A model generated the notes under the pieces. That model saw only the letters and a program-made list of their open reading frames with translations. It was not told the origin of the DNA and ran no database searches. A program made the translations under genes and the position numbers. DNA of 52,443 bases from a virus (taxonomy: Duplodnaviria; Caudoviricetes), in IMG/VR virus record IMGVR_UViG_3300023109_002746, positions 1 through 52,443 of that record, one strand, 5' to 3'. Numbering within the stretch: the first letter of the stretch is position 1; each line of letters opens with the position of its first letter. Below, one piece after another: positions 1,572-24,568 of the stretch.

Positions 1572-2012
1572 TTAGAAGGCTACTGATATCGATACACCAA
1601 TATGATCATTATGAGCTACCACTCCCCATCGACCTATGTTTCCTCCGATCAATGCAGGTACAAGATCGTCTGGTTCATACGATCCTATCATATAGTATAA
1701 GCCACTCAAGAGCAAACCATTGATAATTAGTGATTTGTCCTTCGATGGATTATTTCCATAGATGAGCGTATTTTCCTCGCTAAAACAATTACAAGGATGA
1801 TTCAAGGCCCACTGTGTTTGCTTATGGTCAACGTATGCCGCAAGAGTATAACCACTGAAAAGAAGCTGCTCCTTTTTAGTCCAGTCTTCAAAGTGTCTGA
1901 TCTCACTCTTCGCGGCACATGCAAATACTAGAAATAATAAAGCTAGTAATTTACTAACCTTCCCCAAGTGGATTGTCGAGTGCTTTTTGTATTGTATCTC
2001 GTAAACTTTCAT
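1572..2012 (-). CDS. hypothetical exported/membrane protein (start uncertain)
   Basis: signal-peptide-like LLALLFLVFACAAKS plus further hydrophobic segments. Confidence 0.6.
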   Translation of the reverse strand: MKVYEIQYKKHSTIHLGKVSKLLALLFLVFACAAKSEIRHFEDWTKKEQLLFSGYTLAAYVDHKQTQWALNHPCNCFSEENTLIYGNNPSKDKSLIINGLLLSGLYYMIGSYEPDDLVPALIGGNIGRWGVVAHNDHIGVSISVAF

Positions 2013-2508
2013 CTAGCTTCTCCATCTTATCATCAATACGATCTTCTACTTCCCTCATCGTATTTCTAACGTCCTTTTCGGACTCTCTGCTGATGTCTGA
2101 TACTTGTCGCAATCTTGTGTCAATCTCGTCTTGTACTGTCTTCACTCGGTTGCTAGCCGACTCAGCTACTCTTTCTGTTCTTATAATGTCATCACGTAAA
2201 CTATTCTTAATATCTCGAGTGTACTCAATAGCATCATCTAATTTACGCTCAATCGCTACGTTACGAGCTTCTACTGCTTCGATATCTAATACTTCAAGCT
2301 TTTCGCTCATCTCTTGAAAAGCTTTGTATGATTCAAATCCACCATACAATGCAGCGAGTATTGAACTCAGTAAACCAAACGCTACACCTATTGTTGTCGG
2401 AGTCATACTGATTCCGAACAACTGGAATTTTTTGTTCTTTAGATTCTCGACACCTTCTTCAAGGTTTTCTGTCATCTCACCTAAGTCTTTTTGTTTTCTT
2501 CTTGCCAT
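1954..2508 (-). CDS. membrane-anchored coiled-coil protein
   Basis: one TM segment (TIGVAFGLLSSILAALYGGF) followed by a long heptad-rich helix. Confidence 0.75.
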   Translation of the reverse strand: MARRKQKDLGEMTENLEEGVENLKNKKFQLFGISMTPTTIGVAFGLLSSILAALYGGFESYKAFQEMSEKLEVLDIEAVEARNVAIERKLDDAIEYTRDIKNSLRDDIIRTERVAESASNRVKTVQDEIDTRLRQVSDISRESEKDVRNTMREVEDRIDDKMEKLDESLRDTIQKALDNPLGEG

Positions 2509-2624
2509 GTTTTAGCCTCTCGTGCCAACGTCAGGTTGGTCGTTCTTATTATTAATGAACCATCATCAGAATATACTGTGTATGTTCTTCGCAGTTCTCT
2601 ATCGATTTCAACTCTATAAGTCAT
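2481..2624 (-). CDS. small hypothetical protein (47 aa, not in ORF track)
   Basis: MTYRVEIDRELRRTYTVYSDDGSLIIRTTN...; ATGA overlap with the upstream stop; fills the gap. Confidence 0.55.
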   Translation of the reverse strand: MTYRVEIDRELRRTYTVYSDDGSLIIRTTNLTLAREAKTWQEENKKT

Positions 2625-3085
2625 GTTATCAGTACCAAAGTACCAAATACCACAACTCCCGCAAGCAGCACAGCGCCTACACCTATCAGTATATCAGTCC
2701 AGAATGCTTTGTTTTCTGCTTTTTTACGAGCGGCTGCCATACGAGCGTTACGTATTTTTCTACGTTCCCGCATCATATCTTCGTAAAAATTGATTTGACC
2801 TGAATAGATCAAGAAATCTCGTAGCTCTTTCTCGATGTTTGCTATACGGTGATTTGCTGCCGTAATCTGCAAAGCCTGAGCTTCAACGCTCTTGCCCGAG
2901 AAAATGCTTTTCATTTTCGACGTATTGCGTGCTTCTATTGCTGCTTCTGCTATACTTTCTTTCGCGTCAAAAAATCTTGTAAAACCTTCGTAGAGATCTT
3001 GTGCTTCTCGACCTCTCTCCACACCATTCTTTATCATGTTATAAGCAGAGCCAGCTAGCTGTAAAGCTACTGTAACTTCCACCAT
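2621..3085 (-). CDS. phage protein with C-terminal TM helix
   Basis: helical protein ending ILIGVGAVLLAGVVVFGTLVLIT. Confidence 0.75.
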   Translation of the reverse strand: MVEVTVALQLAGSAYNMIKNGVERGREAQDLYEGFTRFFDAKESIAEAAIEARNTSKMKSIFSGKSVEAQALQITAANHRIANIEKELRDFLIYSGQINFYEDMMRERRKIRNARMAAARKKAENKAFWTDILIGVGAVLLAGVVVFGTLVLIT

Positions 3086-3110
3086 GATTATTTACCCTTC
3101 AGTGTTTTCC

Positions 3111-3557
3111 TTAGTTTTCAAATTTTAATTGCTTTAACTGTTGTATCTCTTGTCGCAGCTTCATGACTTCTAGACGTTTCTTTTCGAGTTCAAGTGCGTA
3201 TAGTTTACTACAATCCAAACGCTCTTTAGGAGCACCGATTGGAATCGTAATCCTACCATACACACCAACATCTCGAACAAAATTGTCGGAAAACTGATTA
3301 TAGTACATCGGGTCGTTTTGCATTGCAAACTGATTCATCAATGGATCGCTCTGGTTTAAAATACCCACAACTCCAAATTCTACATTAGTAGAAGAACCAA
3401 TCGCTGCAGAACACTCAACGTCTCCAGCTCTTACTCTATCACTTTGAAATGATGTTTGAGATTGTGGAATTGCGAGGTTTAAGCTACTTTGTCCGTAAGC
3501 TCCACCACACCAAAATCCGACAACAAAATACACCATCATTATTAATATTCTAGTCAT
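3111..3557 (-). CDS. exported protein with two amphipathic beta-strands and C-terminal coiled coil
   Basis: signal peptide; NVEFGVVG and VGVYGRITIPIG strands bracketed by two Cys. Confidence 0.7.
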   Translation of the reverse strand: MTRILIMMVYFVVGFWCGGAYGQSSLNLAIPQSQTSFQSDRVRAGDVECSAAIGSSTNVEFGVVGILNQSDPLMNQFAMQNDPMYYNQFSDNFVRDVGVYGRITIPIGAPKERLDCSKLYALELEKKRLEVMKLRQEIQQLKQLKFEN

Positions 3558-3933
3558 TTTTAATCTTCGAACATATTCTAGATGATATAACAGTAGCTGA
3601 AAAATCTTCAGCTAGCAACTTAGATCGAGAGCAAATATACACAGCATTTTGTAGATCCACTTCTCGAATGTAGACTTCAATGTCAATTTGACGAAGATAA
3701 TCAAGTCTTAATATTCTTTCTTTGGTCGCAAATGTGACCGACTTCATATCTTTATCTAACACTTGTATTTCATAGTAGGAAACTTCTGGCCTACCATTAA
3801 ATAACTTTAGTCTAGTACTATATATCCCATCTACAAAGGAGGGACTTAAAACAGGATACGTAGGTGTCCATTGATGCGCCTGAACTGACCCACCAATGGA
3901 CAACAGCATCCATACTATCAAAAACTTCATCAT
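3550..3933 (-). CDS. exported Ig-fold protein, fimbrial chaperone-like
   Basis: signal peptide ending VQA; beta-rich LKLFN..YYEIQV..IEVYI..VYICSRS..ICSKI; ORF solid, function tentative. Confidence 0.5.
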   Translation of the reverse strand: MMKFLIVWMLLSIGGSVQAHQWTPTYPVLSPSFVDGIYSTRLKLFNGRPEVSYYEIQVLDKDMKSVTFATKERILRLDYLRQIDIEVYIREVDLQNAVYICSRSKLLAEDFSATVISSRICSKIKND

Positions 3934-3946
3934 ATAAATTTCTCAT

Positions 3947-4462
3947 TTAGATTGCTATACACTCAGCTTGTACAATGGCACGGTAAGTTCCCGCTGGCCA
4001 AGACTTCTGATATCCGTATTGTACTTCCGACTCAACTTTAAACCATGTGCTACCGGCGTAAGTTAATGCAATTTCTGTAACATTATCGTACTCAATTTTA
4101 TCTGTGTCGTAAGAAGACATCTGAGCATCAGAAACTTCTTTTACAGATACTTCACCAGTCCACGCAGTGGTGTCAGTTAAAGCAGGACTTTCAGAAAAAG
4201 AAATTGGATGTGTGATGTATGCCTTGTAGTAGCTAGATTGAACTACGTCATAGCGAATCACTGGCTCCACACCAGCATCAGCTTGAGCTGTGCTTAACTT
4301 GTATGGAAGTGGGTTACCATAAATACCCATCGTGTCTGTAGTCACTGTGCATCTTGATTCAACAGTTCCCACTAAAGGGGTGTCAACTGCTAATGCGGTG
4401 CTGGATGCCAATGGGGCTGCCAACACAGCCAGTCCGAGTATTACTTTATTCAGTTTGAACAT
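3947..4462 (-). CDS. exported fimbrial/pilin-like subunit
   Basis: signal peptide ending ALA; N-terminal GTVESRCTV and C-terminal PAGTYRAIVQAEC resemble chaperone-usher pilin terminal strands. Confidence 0.55.
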   Translation of the reverse strand: MFKLNKVILGLAVLAAPLASSTALAVDTPLVGTVESRCTVTTDTMGIYGNPLPYKLSTAQADAGVEPVIRYDVVQSSYYKAYITHPISFSESPALTDTTAWTGEVSVKEVSDAQMSSYDTDKIEYDNVTEIALTYAGSTWFKVESEVQYGYQKSWPAGTYRAIVQAECIAI

Positions 4463-4477
4463 TTATTGTTCTCCTTA

Positions 4478-5368
4478 TTATTTTTCGCTTTTATACTGCA
4501 AATTTACCAACTCATTATGCAATTTATCTTGCGCAAAGTTCACTCGTCTAGCCCGAGTATTATCGGGTAGAGTACCATCTTTTAGCTCAACCTTTTCTAT
4601 ATAACTCGTTGAGGGCAATGCGACTAAGTAGCTTGTAGGGATCAAGTCTAATGCTTGTAGTCCTGCAAAAGCTAACTGAGAAGCTCCCGCCATAGCGGTC
4701 CCATTTTCTGCGCCGAGGAGTTTTTCAAGGCGTTCGTCTTCGCCTTCTTTCTCTTCAGCGAATTTTTGTCGCTGTCGTTCGTCTTCGTCTTCTTCATCCA
4801 TTACAGCTTTTCTATCAAGTTCTGCTTGGACTAAATCATCGTCCATTGGATCATAAGCGACAACTTCACCACCGATAGGTATCGACGGATCTTTCCAGCC
4901 TGGGCACCGCGGATCAGATTGTGGATCAAAACAAGGATCGTATTTGTATCCATAGACAACCATTGGATTTTCTACGCTACCTTTGCCTTCAACTTCAATC
5001 GAACCCAGTCCCCATAATTCTCGAGGTATATTCGATACACCTACAGCTTTATTAATTGTGTTGCCTGGGATTCCCGACCAATCATCAGTCTCACGGAAAA
5101 TATATCCAGGCCCTTGTGCATTCTCGTTTTGAACATGCACTAGCATATCGTCATCTTCTTCTTTAATCGTTGTATAACGATAGATGACTGTATTCACTGT
5201 TAAACCAGCTTGCTGAGGTAATATATTCTGCATCACCCACTGCAAACCAAAATCAGCGGCATTGTTAGTTGAGCCGTACTGAGTTTCGGTCGTAAACGAA
5301 TCAGAGTAAGAGTAGGAGGAGCAAACTAGCAACGCCAGCCCCGCCAAGAAGTGTCTTCGAACTATCAC
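4478..5368 (-). CDS. exported protein (beta-rich N-domain, CFDPQSDPRCPG motif, acidic coil)
   Basis: signal peptide; 296-aa ORF in operon. Confidence 0.7.
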   Translation of the reverse strand: MIVRRHFLAGLALLVCSSYSYSDSFTTETQYGSTNNAADFGLQWVMQNILPQQAGLTVNTVIYRYTTIKEEDDDMLVHVQNENAQGPGYIFRETDDWSGIPGNTINKAVGVSNIPRELWGLGSIEVEGKGSVENPMVVYGYKYDPCFDPQSDPRCPGWKDPSIPIGGEVVAYDPMDDDLVQAELDRKAVMDEEDEDERQRQKFAEEKEGEDERLEKLLGAENGTAMAGASQLAFAGLQALDLIPTSYLVALPSTSYIEKVELKDGTLPDNTRARRVNFAQDKLHNELVNLQYKSEK

Positions 5369-5903
5369 TCATGCCCTCCTTTTCTTTAGTGTCGTTTGGC
5401 TGAGCTTCAACATCAGCTTGCCAAGCAACTTTGGCTGCATCTCCGATTTGCCCATCGTAAGGACAAGGCGTACCGGCCATCATCATTGCATCAAAGACTC
5501 GTTTGTCCTGACACATTGTCGATACTGCAGCAACTTTCATTCCCATATCGTATAGAGTTTTTGAAAGTTTTAACCTTTCGCAATTATCGTCAGTAACTTG
5601 CGTCCCTGTCGATATGCCCAAAATTTGTGTTTGAATCGCCCCTGCTACACCGAAAGTACAAAGATCCGAGTTCGATGTGTTGATCGTCGGAGTAATCGCC
5701 GATGCAGGTGGTGATTTCAAAGTTGTAGTAGTGTTACCTTGCGTAGTTACCGTACTCGTCGATATCGAATCTGTTCGTATTACATCGTCCGGTAATGTAC
5801 TTCCATCGTCTGGAGTCGTTTCATTTTCTTGAGCGACTGCACAAGCTGATGCCACGAGTAACAATACTAACCCTAATTTGATCAATTTCATAATGTCCAC
5901 CAA
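5301..5903 (-). CDS. exported Cys-containing protein with C-terminal hydrophobic anchor
   Basis: signal peptide; SPPASAITP..DLC..CERLK..MCQD..GTPCP; ends LLLLLLL. Confidence 0.75.
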   Translation of the reverse strand: MVDIMKLIKLGLVLLLVASACAVAQENETTPDDGSTLPDDVIRTDSISTSTVTTQGNTTTTLKSPPASAITPTINTSNSDLCTFGVAGAIQTQILGISTGTQVTDDNCERLKLSKTLYDMGMKVAAVSTMCQDKRVFDAMMMAGTPCPYDGQIGDAAKVAWQADVEAQPNDTKEKEGMSDSSKTLLGGAGVASLLLLLLL

Positions 5904-5984
5904 TGTTTCTATATAGATTCATTCAAACTACATAGCTTATTTATCAATTAAAATCCTACAGCAGTCTATTTATTGACGGTTACG

Positions 5985-6002
5985 CTGTCATAATATTGAC
6001 AG
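5985..6002. promoter_or_regulatory. palindrome CTGTCA-N6-TGACAG, putative operator
   Basis: perfect 6-bp dyad in the intergenic region upstream of the exported-protein operon; extra half sites at 5973-5979 and 6014-6020. Confidence 0.45.
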
Positions 6003-6019
6003 TTTTGCCTATTCTGTCA

Positions 6020-6238
6020 TTATCTAATAGGTAGACGATGAAACGTAGTTGCTTCGTACTCTTCGTCTGCTAGCTGCCTCCAGTAAAGCTTGCAAATTTC
6101 CAAATAGCGTTTTTCAATGCTGTCTGGAAGTTTAAAGCTTTCGTTGTTCAGTTTGTAAAGCTCGATTTCTTTTACAAGAGCTCGTAGAGCTTTCTTTTCC
6201 TGGAAGTCAAATTCCAGATTATGCATTTTCTCTGCCAT
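6020..6238 (-). CDS. hypothetical protein
   Basis: 72-aa ORF tightly packed in the minus-strand run. Confidence 0.65.
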   Translation of the reverse strand: MAEKMHNLEFDFQEKKALRALVKEIELYKLNNESFKLPDSIEKRYLEICKLYWRQLADEEYEATTFHRLPIR

Positions 6239-6240
6239 AA

Positions 6241-6429
6241 TTATGTTCCAAAAAAATCACCTAAAATGCGTTCACCATTCACACTTACCCACTCGGTTCC
6301 TTTCCAAACAAAGCGGACTGTATGATACCATGCTTCAAATACAAGAACAGGGACGATCACTAATGCGACCTTCCCTATGTGTTTCCATTTTATCTCACGG
6401 AAGAACTCTTTGATTTTCGCCATACACAT
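6241..6429 (-). CDS. small membrane protein
   Basis: hydrophobic VALVIVPVLVF segment. Confidence 0.6.
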   Translation of the reverse strand: MCMAKIKEFFREIKWKHIGKVALVIVPVLVFEAWYHTVRFVWKGTEWVSVNGERILGDFFGT

Positions 6430-6434
6430 ACCCC

Positions 6435-6665
6435 CTATGTGTTATCACCATCAAAATATTTCACCTTACTTTTGTCAAACGCATCTTTCGCTGACTTACC
6501 CCATGAACCGAAAAGGTATGCCGACCATCCAACAAATCCTTTTTCCCAAGGAAGAGCTATTGTTCTTTTCTGTCTTTTCTCTTCTTGGATGTGCGCTGAC
6601 GTACACACAAATAGTAGTGCACCACATATGAATAATAACTGAATTAGTATTTCAACTACGAACAT
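6435..6665 (-). CDS. small membrane protein
   Basis: probable start MFVVEILIQLLF at 6665 after GGAG RBS. Confidence 0.6.
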   Translation of the reverse strand: MFVVEILIQLLFICGALLFVCTSAHIQEEKRQKRTIALPWEKGFVGWSAYLFGSWGKSAKDAFDKSKVKYFDGDNT

Positions 6666-6960
6666 GCTTGCAATCTCCTCTATAAATGAATCCAGGGCAA
6701 GAACATTTTCCGTCCAGTATATTATATATACGACCACTGGATCCTGCTATTCGCTTTACATTCGGATGATACGTTTCTGTACGCTCGCCGATCTTCTTGA
6801 ACTTACGACGACTCTTGCTAAATTGCTTGAGCGGATTTTTAAACACCTTGTCGTTGTACTGAACCAAGTGGCCAGCACTATTTACGTGATAAATTCCATT
6901 TTGAACTTGATGACCAGCTTTAGACCAGTCAGTCACTTCTTGTAGAATCTCAATCATCAT
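6652..6960 (-). CDS. SWIM zinc-finger protein
   Basis: CSCPGFIYRGDCKH (CxCx7CxH). Confidence 0.75.
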   Translation of the reverse strand: MMIEILQEVTDWSKAGHQVQNGIYHVNSAGHLVQYNDKVFKNPLKQFSKSRRKFKKIGERTETYHPNVKRIAGSSGRIYNILDGKCSCPGFIYRGDCKHVRS

Positions 6961-7066
6961 CTTCCTCGTTCGTTCGTTCACGGATTTGCTCAATAATATC
7001 TACGATAGACAGAAGTTCATCAGCATCACGTACAGTATCAAGCTCAATTTCAATTTTGATTTTCAT
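6950..7066 (-). CDS. small hypothetical protein (38 aa, not in ORF track)
   Basis: MKIKIEIELDTVRDADELLSIVDIIEQIRERTNEEDDD; TAATG coupling with upstream gene. Confidence 0.55.
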   Translation of the reverse strand: MKIKIEIELDTVRDADELLSIVDIIEQIRERTNEEDDD

Positions 7067-7377
7067 TACCATTTCCTACGCTGGTGAATGTAGATGTCGA
7101 TTCGCTTAGAATTGGCGATACCGCCATACACATCACCGTTGATTCGATAAGATCTACCACGAGGGCATTTCTCAATTGCTTCCCTACCTTTCAAAGAAAC
7201 GCGGTATTGTAAAGCGTAACCATAACGATCCACAGCATTCGATTCACGAAGCTGCTTATTCAAATACGTTACAATACCGCGTATTTCTTCAATCTGCATC
7301 ATGTCACCAACACATTGTGTGTCAGCACTTCCAATGTAGGACTCAGAGTTTCGCTTTTTCATATTCACTAATTTCAT
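7066..7377 (-). CDS. hypothetical early protein
   Basis: ORF with AGGA RBS directly after promoter 7410-7438. Confidence 0.7.
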   Translation of the reverse strand: MKLVNMKKRNSESYIGSADTQCVGDMMQIEEIRGIVTYLNKQLRESNAVDRYGYALQYRVSLKGREAIEKCPRGRSYRINGDVYGGIANSKRIDIYIHQRRKW

Positions 7378-7409
7378 AACAAATTCCTAATCAATTTAAG
7401 ATACAGACC

Positions 7410-7438
7410 ATTCTATACTAGTTCAAAGCAAATGTCAA
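7410..7438 (-). promoter_or_regulatory. class B sigma70 promoter TTGACA-N17-TAGAAT
   Basis: consensus -35, near-consensus -10, upstream A tract; spacer nearly identical to 8672-8700. Confidence 0.85.
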
Positions 7439-7446
7439 CTGTTTTT

Positions 7447-7650
7447 TTAACTTTTTTTGCTAAAGAAAACAGACCGAGTTAGACCACCAAAGTAGTAAGA
7501 CATAAACAGAGCAGAGACTACGATGAGTGCTGTTGCTGCCGCTTCCTTATCACCACCGATTGCAGTACCGACTATTAGGAACAGTTGAGTGCCGCCGATG
7601 ATAACTCCCATTGCAATGAGACCTACCGCCATATTTTTAAACATTTCCAT
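7447..7650 (-). CDS. small two-TM membrane protein
   Basis: two hydrophobic helices, AAGGAG RBS. Confidence 0.7.
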   Translation of the reverse strand: MEMFKNMAVGLIAMGVIIGGTQLFLIVGTAIGGDKEAAATALIVVSALFMSYYFGGLTRSVFFSKKS

Positions 7651-7679
7651 AAGATTTCTCCTTAATAAAAAAAGGTAGC

Positions 7680-8636
7680 TTACGCTACCTCCGCCATTTC
7701 AACCGCTAGGTCGAGGGCTGCAACTTTACGCTTAGCGTTTGTACCGAACCAAGCCGAAGTGGCTCGAGCATCAGCAGAACGTCCAAGCTCGTGATCAGTC
7801 ATGTAAGTGACTGCGTTGTATGCATTCCACCAAGTACCACGAGCAAAGTCCGCGCCTGGTTGAGTGTCTACAATTTCGAAGGCACGTTCAGCGGTTCGGC
7901 TGAGTGTGCGATGTTCTTGGGAGGAAGTACCGAAGACTTGTCCAAGGAAGTTCTTGAACGACTCGTCGGTGTATCGCTTCTTACCAAGGAACTCAGCAGC
8001 TTCTTTGAACTGTCCCATACGCATATGTGAGATTCCAAGAGCAGCTTTAACCTGATCAGCATCGAACTCATTACGATGAGAAACTCGTACTGCAGGTTGA
8101 CCTTTTTCGGTAAGAGCCATAGTGAGGGTATTGTTACAAACAGTTCGTGTCATTACAAATTTGCAATCAATGGAACGTCCGTATACGTGAGGATTCGAGA
8201 ATAGAAGGTAGCCCTTCACCTCGTCACCGCCGAACAGAGTGAATCCATCTTTGACATCAGCTGATGCCCATACAATTTGTCCGTCTTTCAACGAACCAGC
8301 AGTGTCCATTACCATGTCACCAGCTCGTACGAATTCGTTAAAGAACTCGAAGGCTGTGTCGTTTTGGCATGGATTCCACTTGCCACCCACGTTTGTAAGA
8401 ATCTTGTTATCGGTATCACGTACCAAAGCTTGTTGACCAGTGAGAACTTGCTCACCGTTGATGTTAATATAAGAATCTTCAAGACGTACTTTCCAATCGA
8501 GTCCTGCAGCAACCTGCATTTCACGTGGAGTCATGTCGTCTTCTACTGCTGTTCCAAGACCGTGCCAAGGCACACCAGAGGAGAGTCGATAAGCCATTTG
8601 AGCTTCGCCGTTTACCATTTCAAGTTCATGAGACAT
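7680..8636 (-). CDS. DUF932-family phage/plasmid protein
   Basis: VPWHGLG..AGLDWKV..TAGSLKDG..RTVCNNTL..GTWWNAYNAVT motifs. Confidence 0.85.
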   Translation of the reverse strand: MSHELEMVNGEAQMAYRLSSGVPWHGLGTAVEDDMTPREMQVAAGLDWKVRLEDSYININGEQVLTGQQALVRDTDNKILTNVGGKWNPCQNDTAFEFFNEFVRAGDMVMDTAGSLKDGQIVWASADVKDGFTLFGGDEVKGYLLFSNPHVYGRSIDCKFVMTRTVCNNTLTMALTEKGQPAVRVSHRNEFDADQVKAALGISHMRMGQFKEAAEFLGKKRYTDESFKNFLGQVFGTSSQEHRTLSRTAERAFEIVDTQPGADFARGTWWNAYNAVTYMTDHELGRSADARATSAWFGTNAKRKVAALDLAVEMAEVA

Positions 8637-8719: not shown

Positions 8720-8917
8720 TCAATTTTTTTTCGTTTTGGAGATCCTGTAGTTCAGACCTCCAAATGTTACTGTTTGAAGCCAGCAAATTGCTAGCCAGTT
8801 CGTTACTGTGAACGCAATACCGAGATTGAACAACGTGTTCAAAGCCCAGATCGTGACCAAAGGAGCGAGGAATACCCCCGCTACAATGACCAAAAGAATT
8901 GCGAATGCTTTACTCAT
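8720..8917 (-). CDS. small membrane protein
   Basis: hydrophobic; PLVTIWALNTLF..NWLA. Confidence 0.7.
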   Translation of the reverse strand: MSKAFAILLVIVAGVFLAPLVTIWALNTLFNLGIAFTVTNWLAICWLQTVTFGGLNYRISKTKKN

Positions 8918-24153: not shown

Positions 24154-24162
24154 TATGTACTC

Positions 24163-24273
24163 CTATAATATAAAAATAATAGCTAAAATAAACCCCACAT
24201 TCAAACCAATAGAACAAACAGTGATAAAGTCTTTAGTAAAACTTCTCTGCTCGAACTCTACAGTTTTGGGCAT
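24163..24273 (-). CDS. small membrane peptide (36 aa)
   Basis: AGGAG RBS; MPKTVEFEQRSFTKDFITVCSIGLNVGFILAIIFIL. Confidence 0.5.
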   Translation of the reverse strand: MPKTVEFEQRSFTKDFITVCSIGLNVGFILAIIFIL

Positions 24274-24280
24274 GTAACTC

Positions 24281-24430
24281 CTAGTCGTTGTAATTGATGG
24301 ATTTCGTCAACTTTTGTTTCTCAGTAATCTTATCCTGAGCTTGCTGAGAAACAACAGCGGTTATTCCCCCGAACACCATAGGACACATCATAACGCTAAG
24401 AATACCTAACAATAACCCTAGGTTTTCCAC
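24281..24430 (-). CDS. small membrane protein (49 aa)
   Basis: GTG start; LGLLLGILSVMMCPMVFGGITAVV. Confidence 0.5.
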   Translation of the reverse strand: MENLGLLLGILSVMMCPMVFGGITAVVSQQAQDKITEKQKLTKSINYND

Positions 24431-24558
24431 TTAGCTTTTTCCTCACCCTTAATCAGTTTACGAGTACTATTGGGCGCACCAAAGTCTCGCTCATAAACTG
24501 TTTTCCCACGATCGGGACTTTCATAAATTTTAGGAACGCGCTTTACACTATCGTTCAT
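24418..24558 (-). CDS. small hypothetical protein (46 aa)
   Basis: AGGAG RBS; KIYESPDRGKTVYERDFG. Confidence 0.6.
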   Translation of the reverse strand: MNDSVKRVPKIYESPDRGKTVYERDFGAPNSTRKLIKGEEKAKWKT

Positions 24559-24568
24559 ATCAAATCTC

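Follow-up and report, generated by a model that had tools for sequence, protein, structure and literature searches.

The stretch of DNA analysed here, hereafter called the window, is the IMG/VR viral contig IMGVR_UViG_3300023109_002746 over its whole length of 52,443 bp, for which the completeness estimated by CheckV is about 30%. This report concerns a cassette of eight open reading frames (ORFs) located at positions 1572-5903 on the minus strand, six of which encode proteins with an export signal and two of which encode membrane-anchored helical proteins. Two adjacent products of this cassette, p171 and p127 (all proteins are named after their length in residues), are predicted to associate through the first and last strands of both partners, in a manner that resembles the pairing of a pilus subunit with its periplasmic chaperone.

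The ORF call for the window yielded 95 ORFs, located without exception on the minus strand and covering 96% of the sequence. The encoded products include ribonucleotide reductase, PhoH, ThyX, serine hydroxymethyltransferase, T4 RNase H, Cpn10 and NifU. A capsid gene of the T4 gp23 type was detected in two of the five related contigs searched, the closest relative included (expectation value E ~1e-149). On the basis of gp23 in these relatives and of the gene content of the window, the phage is T4-like; it is uncultured and marine.

The cassette and its conservation

The cassette and the gap that precedes it are organized as follows, in the order of the minus strand.

5904-6019, minus strand: gap of 116 nucleotides (nt) upstream of the cassette, in which ATAAATA occurs twice (5967-5973 and 5938-5944) and resembles the late promoters of T4-type phages
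5301-5903, minus strand: p200, with an export signal, a Thr/Ser-rich linker, a conserved four-Cys domain, an acidic linker and a C-terminal hydrophobic tail; the true start is probably the ATG at 5891
4478-5368, minus strand: p296, exported, with conserved domains at the N-terminus (containing Cys146/155) and at the C-terminus, joined by an acidic linker
3947-4462, minus strand: p171, exported, predicted to be a beta-sandwich subunit, with C38 and C168 as a pair and a conserved N-terminal extension (26-34) that stays free
3550-3933, minus strand: p127, exported, predicted single-domain PapD-like "half chaperone" with Cys101/121 and the mature N-terminus HxxTPTYP
3111-3557, minus strand: p148, exported, with a strongly conserved core bracketed by Cys49 and Cys116 and a charged C-terminal helix
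2621-3085, minus strand: p154, helical, anchored in the membrane by a C-terminal segment (132-150) and lacking an export signal
1954-2508, minus strand: p184, which starts with a cytoplasmic tail, crosses the membrane once (40-58) and continues with a long helical part in the periplasm, with a C-terminal NPL
1572-2012, minus strand: p146, a sixth exported protein whose gene overlaps the end of p184 by 59 nt, with an invariant C-terminal ...VAF

A preliminary description of this DNA had noticed five consecutive genes for exported proteins, and this observation is borne out by hydropathy and by the conservation of the cleavage site. The maximum hydropathy over ten N-terminal residues ranges from 2.76 to 3.24 in p200, p296, p171, p127, p148 and p146, all six lying above 2.52, the 90th percentile among the other 87 ORFs of the window. 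In the alignments of p200, p296, p171, p127 and p148, the first 20-25 residues are variable and an AxA-like cleavage site is conserved together with the mature part. The same description had grouped the last three products as membrane-anchored helical proteins; this holds for p154 and p184, whereas p146 is better regarded as a further exported protein. The paired cysteines that it reported are invariant among the relatives of all five core proteins, each mature protein carrying one or two pairs (C82/C108/C131/C147 in p200, C146/C155 in p296, C38/C168 in p171, C101/C121 in p127 and C49/C116 in p148). The terminal sequences quoted for p171 are present, and the bracketing by cysteines in p148 and p200 is real, the beta-hairpin between them being putative. 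A lipoprotein reading was considered for p200, p296, p148 and p146 and rejected, because the cysteines of the signal region are not conserved among homologues.

Neither the eight proteins nor ten homologues taken from cultured phages matched a named family in Pfam, NCBIfam or PHROGs. When PDB sequences were searched with profiles of p171, p148, p127, p200 and p296, nothing significant was obtained, and p296 has no relative in Pfam, NCBIfam or PDB. The library matches of p184 are weak and limited to helical or coiled-coil families. Matches to unnamed phage families were nevertheless obtained: p200 corresponds to phrog_20531 (E 2.8e-14), p171 to phrog_25895, p127 to phrog_25455 and p148 to phrog_37374 (E 3.5e-7).

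The conservation of the gene block, which had been put forward as a check, was found in every locus compared. The order p200-p296-p171-p127-p148 is kept in 18 of the 18 related IMG/VR loci, some short ones among them having the block cut by the contig end, and this recurrence rules out chance as its explanation. The remaining genes are less constant, p154 being present in 12 of these loci, p146 in six and p184 in some only. For p171, whose identity across loci is 50-86%, 703 homologues were collected at E <= 1e-3. They collapse to 110 clusters at 50% identity and are for the most part fragments, so that the family is a compact one. A scan of species genomes returned only seven short contigs from metagenome-assembled genomes of mixed taxonomy, which are probably misbinned phage, and a profile built from the wider family had no match in 399 other Gammaproteobacteria genomes. 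As far as searched, the p171 family is phage-borne.

In 15 metagenome studies (2016-2024) of seawater or marine origin, there are runs that contain at least 86% of the sampled words of the window DNA; five of these runs are possibly the source of the window DNA itself. With its 703 p171 homologues and these 15 studies, the cassette is a common one. Four RNA libraries contain contigs that match parts of the cassette, some without mismatch, and one contig of 1,709 nt runs from p127 to p296. These contigs are not counted as support because such contigs show neither transcription, nor strand, nor ends. A search of the literature, supplementary files excluded, found no description of a phage-encoded PapD-like chaperone or of this cassette.

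A predicted chaperone-subunit pair

The structure predicted for p171 by AlphaFold2 has a mean predicted local distance difference test score (pLDDT) of 83.5, with means over ten-residue blocks of 89-96 between residues 41 and 170 and values below 50 for residues 27-34. It is confidently predicted as a beta-sandwich. The best PDB matches returned by Foldseek are the pilin domain of PapG and FimG, both weak (E 1.7e-3, template modelling (TM) score 0.38-0.49) and mixed with carbohydrate-binding modules and adhesin domains; the same search against the viral fold library BFVD was uninformative. The pilin-like character initially proposed for p171 is weakly backed by the predicted fold, whose best matches are pilin domains, and fails at the level of sequence. 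None of 22 family members has any Pfam match, SCPU (PF05229) included, and hhalign against 13 SCPU domains gave a probability of 4.4% over the last 18 columns only. A feature search with ESM returned, at 0.94, an SCPU-labelled cluster in which 15% of the members bear this label, which is a lead only.

The model of p127 (pLDDT 85) has as top Foldseek matches the N-terminal domains of PapD, FimC, SfaE, DraB and Caf1M (E 4e-4 to 1e-3, TM score over the query (TMq) 0.5-0.6), followed in the list by MSP/VAP domains, which belong to the same fold superfamily as the N-domains of PapD-type chaperones. The PapD-like immunoglobulin domain foreseen for this protein is thus recovered in its predicted fold. 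By sequence, p127 is not a member of the chaperone family: Pfam returned nothing for PapD_N (PF00345), and hhalign against nine PapD_N domains gave a probability of 0.4%. The protein consists of one domain of about 108 mature residues, and only its fold matches the N-domain of the chaperones. No longer p127 homologue was found, which is weak evidence.

The mature N-terminus of p127, His followed by xxTPTYP, is invariant in 10 of 10 marine sequences. The p127-like protein of an Erwinia phage also begins with His, and the homologue of Vibrio phage River4 with Leu. The idea of a copper-binding histidine brace, suggested by this residue, was dropped because of the Leu of River4 and because the fold matches chaperones.

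When mature p171 and mature p127 were modelled together, the interaction score ipSAE reached 0.75, 0.74 and 0.75, versus 0.01 for the best control. The mark applied to this score is attained by 58 of 80 solved complexes and by two of 110 mismatched pairs. The runs agreed on at least 90% of the contacts, with a pLDDT of at least 86 for the partners. The predicted interface combines residues 35-42 and 160-171 of p171 with residues 20-26 and 112-123 of p127, which are the first and last strands of both models. Such a pairing of first and last strands is the geometry of donor-strand complementation in the chaperone-subunit complexes of FGL type, and the model of the p171-p127 pair can be described as donor-strand-complementation-like.

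Sequence conservation was compared with this interface. In p127, 10 of the 18 invariant mature residues lie inside the 24-residue interface (p = 7e-4), and in p171 12 of 36 lie inside its 33 residues (p = 0.06). The extension that precedes the first strand of p171 is outside the predicted interface. Its pattern, hydrophobic-x-hydrophobic-x-Gly-x-hydrophobic, persists even among members so distant that they were detected only at E 1e-4 to 1e-8.

The absence of an usher, already remarked upon in the preliminary description, was confirmed in all the records searched. The outer-membrane usher family (PF00577), which the same search found in E. coli, was detected neither in the window and four related contigs, all of them fragments, nor in five cultured phage genomes, including the complete ones of River4 and of Erwinia phage pEp_SNUABM_01, which carry the p171/p127/p148 trio described below. 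Edge-strand complementation of the subunit by the chaperone is predicted, in silico only. The cassette lies outside the chaperone-usher systems in their defining sense, because it has no usher, only half a chaperone and no sequence membership in PapD_N or SCPU.

Two gene sets and their neighbourhoods

Comparison with cultured phages shows the cassette to be the union of two older gene sets, namely set A (p200, p296 and p184), common to SAR11 and Roseobacter phages, and set B (p171, p127 and p148), common to Vibrio and Erwinia phages.

Thirteen phage records, cultured or assembled, contain the Cys domain of p200. Six belong to Pelagibacter phages (the myovirus Mosig and five podoviruses), two to Roseobacter phages, two to Ralstonia phage RSP15 and three to assembled phage genomes. 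Between this domain and gp54 of Pelagibacter phage HTVC115P, the identity is 56%. In HTVC115P, Mosig, HTVC202P and Baldr, the gene with the p200 domain is followed by one for a large exported protein, then by one for a p184-like protein. Where detectable, only the C-terminal part of the large exported protein is common to p296; with HTVC115P gp53, the match is limited to the C-terminal 39 residues. The p184-like proteins (HTVC115P gp49, Mosig_00200, HTVC202P gp26, Baldr gene 004 and CRP-810 gp51) have one membrane segment, a helical region and a C-terminal NPL. Across T4-like, SAR11 and Roseobacter phages, this Asn-Pro-Leu, located 1-3 residues from the end, holds the sole invariant residues of the p184 family, and it may be a docking peptide for a partner.

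Set A is directly upstream of the large terminase gene in HTVC202P and Baldr, and follows tail-fibre genes in CRP-810 and tail-fibre-like ones in HTVC115P. In T7-like phages, the holin and the spanins are encoded between the tail-fibre and the terminase genes. In CRP-810, the p184-like gp51 follows the gene with the p200 domain, but no p296 relative was detected. Two annotations of this phage (genes within 5833-7641 of the locus) look wrong: gp51, annotated as a lysozyme, is one of the p184-like proteins, helical, anchored in the membrane and terminated by NPLG, and gp53, annotated as an OmpA family protein, carries the p200 Cys domain without any Pfam OmpA match. In addition, a small and very basic protein ending in ..AYWADKVKW or similar adjoins the p200-like gene in three loci. 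It precedes that gene in one IMG/VR locus (upstream of position 4636) and in HTVC202P (3914-4186), and comes after it in CRP-810 (7643-7894).

As regards set B, relatives of p148 occur in 186 phage records, 183 from Vibrio and three from Erwinia phages. All three families are adjacent in Vibrio phage K404 (84 kb), and the first two, p171 and p127, were confirmed in Vibrio phage D460 (60 kb). In River4, a T5-like Vibrio phage of 128 kb, the p171-like and p148-like proteins match by BLAST, and the middle gene resembles p127 only in size, export signal and Cys pattern. In pEp_SNUABM_01, the p148-like protein matches by BLAST; its neighbours are p127-like and p171-like by their signals, Cys patterns and termini alone, without a significant match. 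In the three Vibrio phage groups (128, 84 and 60 kb), the trio comes right after two tail-fibre-like ORFs (phrog_10818) that have a collagen-like stretch and no export signal. On the other side, it ends 0.6 kb before a holin and an M15 endolysin in River4, and an endolysin is encoded 2.4 kb downstream in D460.

Two details of the River4 record (MT448617.1) deserve mention. The p148-like gene is annotated there as a 67-aa fragment (gp148), its open frame being 125 aa long (4917-5294). An unannotated 67-aa ORF (5242-5445) overlaps the 3' end of this gene just upstream of the holin; it has an apparent canonical lipobox (..IISGC) and could encode an o-spanin-like lipoprotein.

The sequences upstream of the cassette bear on its timing. 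On the minus, coding strand of the window, 13 of the 16 ATAAATA sites are located at most 90 nt upstream of a gene start. The same motif is found within 160 nt upstream of the p200 homologue in 10 of 17 loci, which are related to one another and do not represent independent counts. These motifs suggest a late expression of the cassette.

In the window as a whole, a rich complement of auxiliary metabolic genes encodes serine hydroxymethyltransferase, two class I/II aminotransferases, NifU-like and iron-sulphur assembly proteins, two 2-oxoglutarate-Fe(II) oxygenases, glutaredoxins and Cpn10. Three small ORFs (62, 67 and 65 aa) that lie just upstream of the cassette, at 6241-6429, 7447-7650 and 8720-8917, show by eye one to three hydrophobic segments each and possibly encode membrane proteins of small size; relatives of the first two are present in the closest loci. 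The widest stretch without a called ORF is located at 24154-24568 (415 nt).

Proposed function and known systems

The function proposed for the cassette is a late, periplasmic and usher-independent assembly of subunits by a chaperone, acting on the envelope near lysis. This proposal is a tentative one, with a probability of about 0.4. Set B would be the chaperone-subunit module, in which p127 would cap the first and last strands of p171 by donor-strand complementation and leave the N-terminal extension of p171 free. Set A, together with p154 and p146 in this lineage, would place in the periplasm a domain rich in cysteines, a large exported protein and a helical stalk anchored in the membrane. 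With neither an usher nor any other outer-membrane pore encoded, the assembly would be confined to the periplasm until the cell bursts. Most likely it would act on the envelope at the end of the infection; in phages that have no recognisable spanins, it could help to dismantle the layers of peptidoglycan and outer membrane or to bridge them. A role in lysis is favoured by the holin and endolysin neighbours in Vibrio phages, by the position at the tail-fibre/terminase junction in podoviruses, by the late-type motif and by the i-spanin-like p184 with its overlapping partner gene. In a more elaborate version, p127 would prime p171, which would polymerise via its extension and build, with p148, p184, p200 and p296, a structure that spans the envelope and, at lysis, breaks or fuses its outer layers; both the polymerisation and the lysis-related role are conjectural here, and this complete scheme must be judged improbable.

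Several points weigh against the proposed function. At the structural level, the match of p171 to the pilin fold is weak, with TM scores below 0.5, and p171 may be a complete domain because its monomer is folded confidently without a donor strand. The high score of the complex may reflect the memory that the model has of solved chaperone-subunit complexes; it indicates likeness and is no proof of binding. The putative link to lysis comes from gene neighbourhood only, and the tail-fibre genes of the same neighbourhoods fit a masking of the receptor equally well. In the window itself, the nearest cell-wall hydrolase gene, the only one found, is about 12 kb away from the cassette, which adjoins neither a lysis gene nor a tail-fibre gene, a situation that argues against lysis and receptor masking alike. 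In pEp_SNUABM_01 the trio is located among tRNA genes, and the record of this phage is classed with the rV5-type phages (Vequintavirinae), which are spanin-bearing. Finally, late expression can only be suggested because the exact T4 octamer TATAAATA is not over-represented in the window, where four copies were found versus 3.87 expected.

The main rival to an action on the envelope at lysis is receptor masking or superinfection exclusion, in which the exported proteins would bind or block an envelope receptor, either preventing injection by other phages or sparing the progeny from adsorption to debris. This role was among those envisaged in the preliminary description, and the gene context points equally to a lysis step. 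It agrees with the tail-fibre neighbours of the trio in the three Vibrio phage groups and of set A in HTVC115P and CRP-810, with the predicted delivery of every product to the periplasm, and with the putative carbohydrate-binding sequence seen by eye at the beginning of the large set-A proteins of HTVC202P and Baldr. The upstream motif, however, is late-promoter-like and does not indicate early control, no lipoprotein signal is conserved, and the T4-like window has no adjacent tail-fibre gene. A receptor binder engaged in an arms race would also be expected to vary more than these strongly conserved proteins, p171 having 703 homologues and an identity of 50-86% across loci. Receptor masking is accordingly regarded as rather unlikely. 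Another possibility is that p127 and p171 form a closed 1:1 heterodimer in the periplasm, a non-polymerising two-domain binding protein that could engage a host enzyme of the periplasm, whether to inhibit it or to recruit it, or else time lysis by sensing a signal from the envelope, as T4 RI does. The complete and confident sandwich predicted for p171 alone, the involvement of both edge strands of both partners in the interface, and the constant association of the two genes, in Vibrio and Erwinia phages as well, are in keeping with such a heterodimer. It leaves unexplained both the conserved free extension of p171 and the constant third partner p148, and is considered doubtful.

The least likely reading is the one first proposed, namely a fibre on the surface of the infected cell, because no route across the outer membrane is encoded. 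In this scheme, p171 would polymerise by donor-strand exchange and leave the cell through a pore made of p148 and/or p200, giving an adhesive pilus. The chaperone-like and subunit-like pair with its donor-strand-type interface, the conserved free extension of p171 and the alternating hydrophobic residues in the Cys-bracketed core of p148 would all suit a pilus. An usher-free system is moreover conceivable, because the donor-strand assembly described for an Enterococcus pilus in a recent preprint needs no usher (10.64898/2026.10.17.759780). Nothing was found, however, that could carry a fibre across the outer membrane: the usher is absent from 10 of the 10 phage records searched, and a pore formed by p148 or p200 is purely putative, the C-terminal helix of p148 being highly charged and the C-terminal anchor of p200 being of inner-membrane type and missing from its pelagiphage relatives. 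The weakness of the pilin match of p171 adds to these difficulties, and a surface pilus appears highly improbable. In short, what had been observed in this DNA is confirmed, and its interpretation is supported in part.

Donor-strand complementation is known from bacterial pili that need an outer-membrane usher. If the proposed function is correct, a phage half-chaperone and its subunit would reuse this mechanism inside the periplasm without an usher. In the more elaborate version, the assembly would constitute a new class of outer-membrane disruptor, acting in place of spanins in many marine T4-like phages that lack known ones. A published survey of spanins lists marine cyanomyophages as spanin-less, considers that proteins of other topologies could serve as spanins and attributes spanins to rV5-type phages (PMC6139136). 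The cassette may consequently bear on the way in which marine T4-like phages without recognisable spanins pass the outer membrane. A bench test is feasible because cultured Vibrio phages carry the trio.

Among known systems, the spanins offer several likenesses to the cassette. In layout, p184 recalls an i-spanin such as that of the lambda Rz/Rz1 pair, with a membrane segment towards the N-terminus followed by a long periplasmic region that is probably helical, and the p146 gene, as its partner, overlaps its 3' end. The signal and the membrane segment of p200 occupy opposite ends of the protein, which recalls the u-spanin gp11 of T1. Conserved periplasmic cysteines and a position beside lysis or terminase genes in several phages are further common traits. 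In contrast with spanins, p146 and p200 have no conserved lipoprotein signal, and five further exported proteins are without counterpart. A Cys stands at a possible o-spanin lipobox position in only one of five aligned p146 homologues; the signal Cys of p200 is not conserved either, and the homologues of Mosig, HTVC202P, Baldr and CRP-810 are devoid of the tail. No sequence relation to known spanins was found in PHROGs, Pfam or NCBIfam.

The receptor-blocking proteins encoded by phages form a second point of comparison. T5 Llp and Cor block the receptor, which keeps out other phages or spares the progeny from adsorption to debris, and their genes adjoin those for receptor binding. The cassette resembles these morons (T5 Llp, Cor, lambda Lom) by the export of its products and by its location next to tail-fibre genes in the three Vibrio phage groups. 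These morons are single lipoproteins or outer-membrane proteins, whereas the phage cassette encodes multiple proteins that are strongly conserved and have no conserved lipobox.

Parallels are also found in donor-strand systems. As in the chaperone-usher pathway (PapD, FimC, Caf1M and DraB, or the Csu/SCPU type), both partners would be exported by the Sec route. The predicted fold of p127 matches the N-domain of PapD, and p171 is predicted as a beta-sandwich capped on its first and last strands, with a free N-terminal extension of alternating hydrophobic residues and Gly. At its C-terminus, p171 has a "PAGxY" strand motif that resembles the one of SCPU proteins. The differences lie in the missing usher, in a chaperone of one domain instead of two, in the lack of sequence membership, in carriers that are lytic phages, and in the Cys pair of p171, which links the first and last strands. 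The Elr/WxL pilus of Enterococcus faecalis provides a precedent for fibres built without an usher by chaperone-guided donor-strand exchange and is reported to be confined to Bacillota (10.64898/2026.10.17.759780). The priming of subunits by donor-strand complementation and the dispensable usher would be common to both systems. By its description, the Elr/WxL pilus is set apart as a Gram-positive system whose DUF916/DUF3324 chaperone is held in the membrane, whose subunits are of the WxL type and whose anchoring relies on sortase. The phage cassette can be viewed as a variant of a known, donor-strand kind of mechanism.

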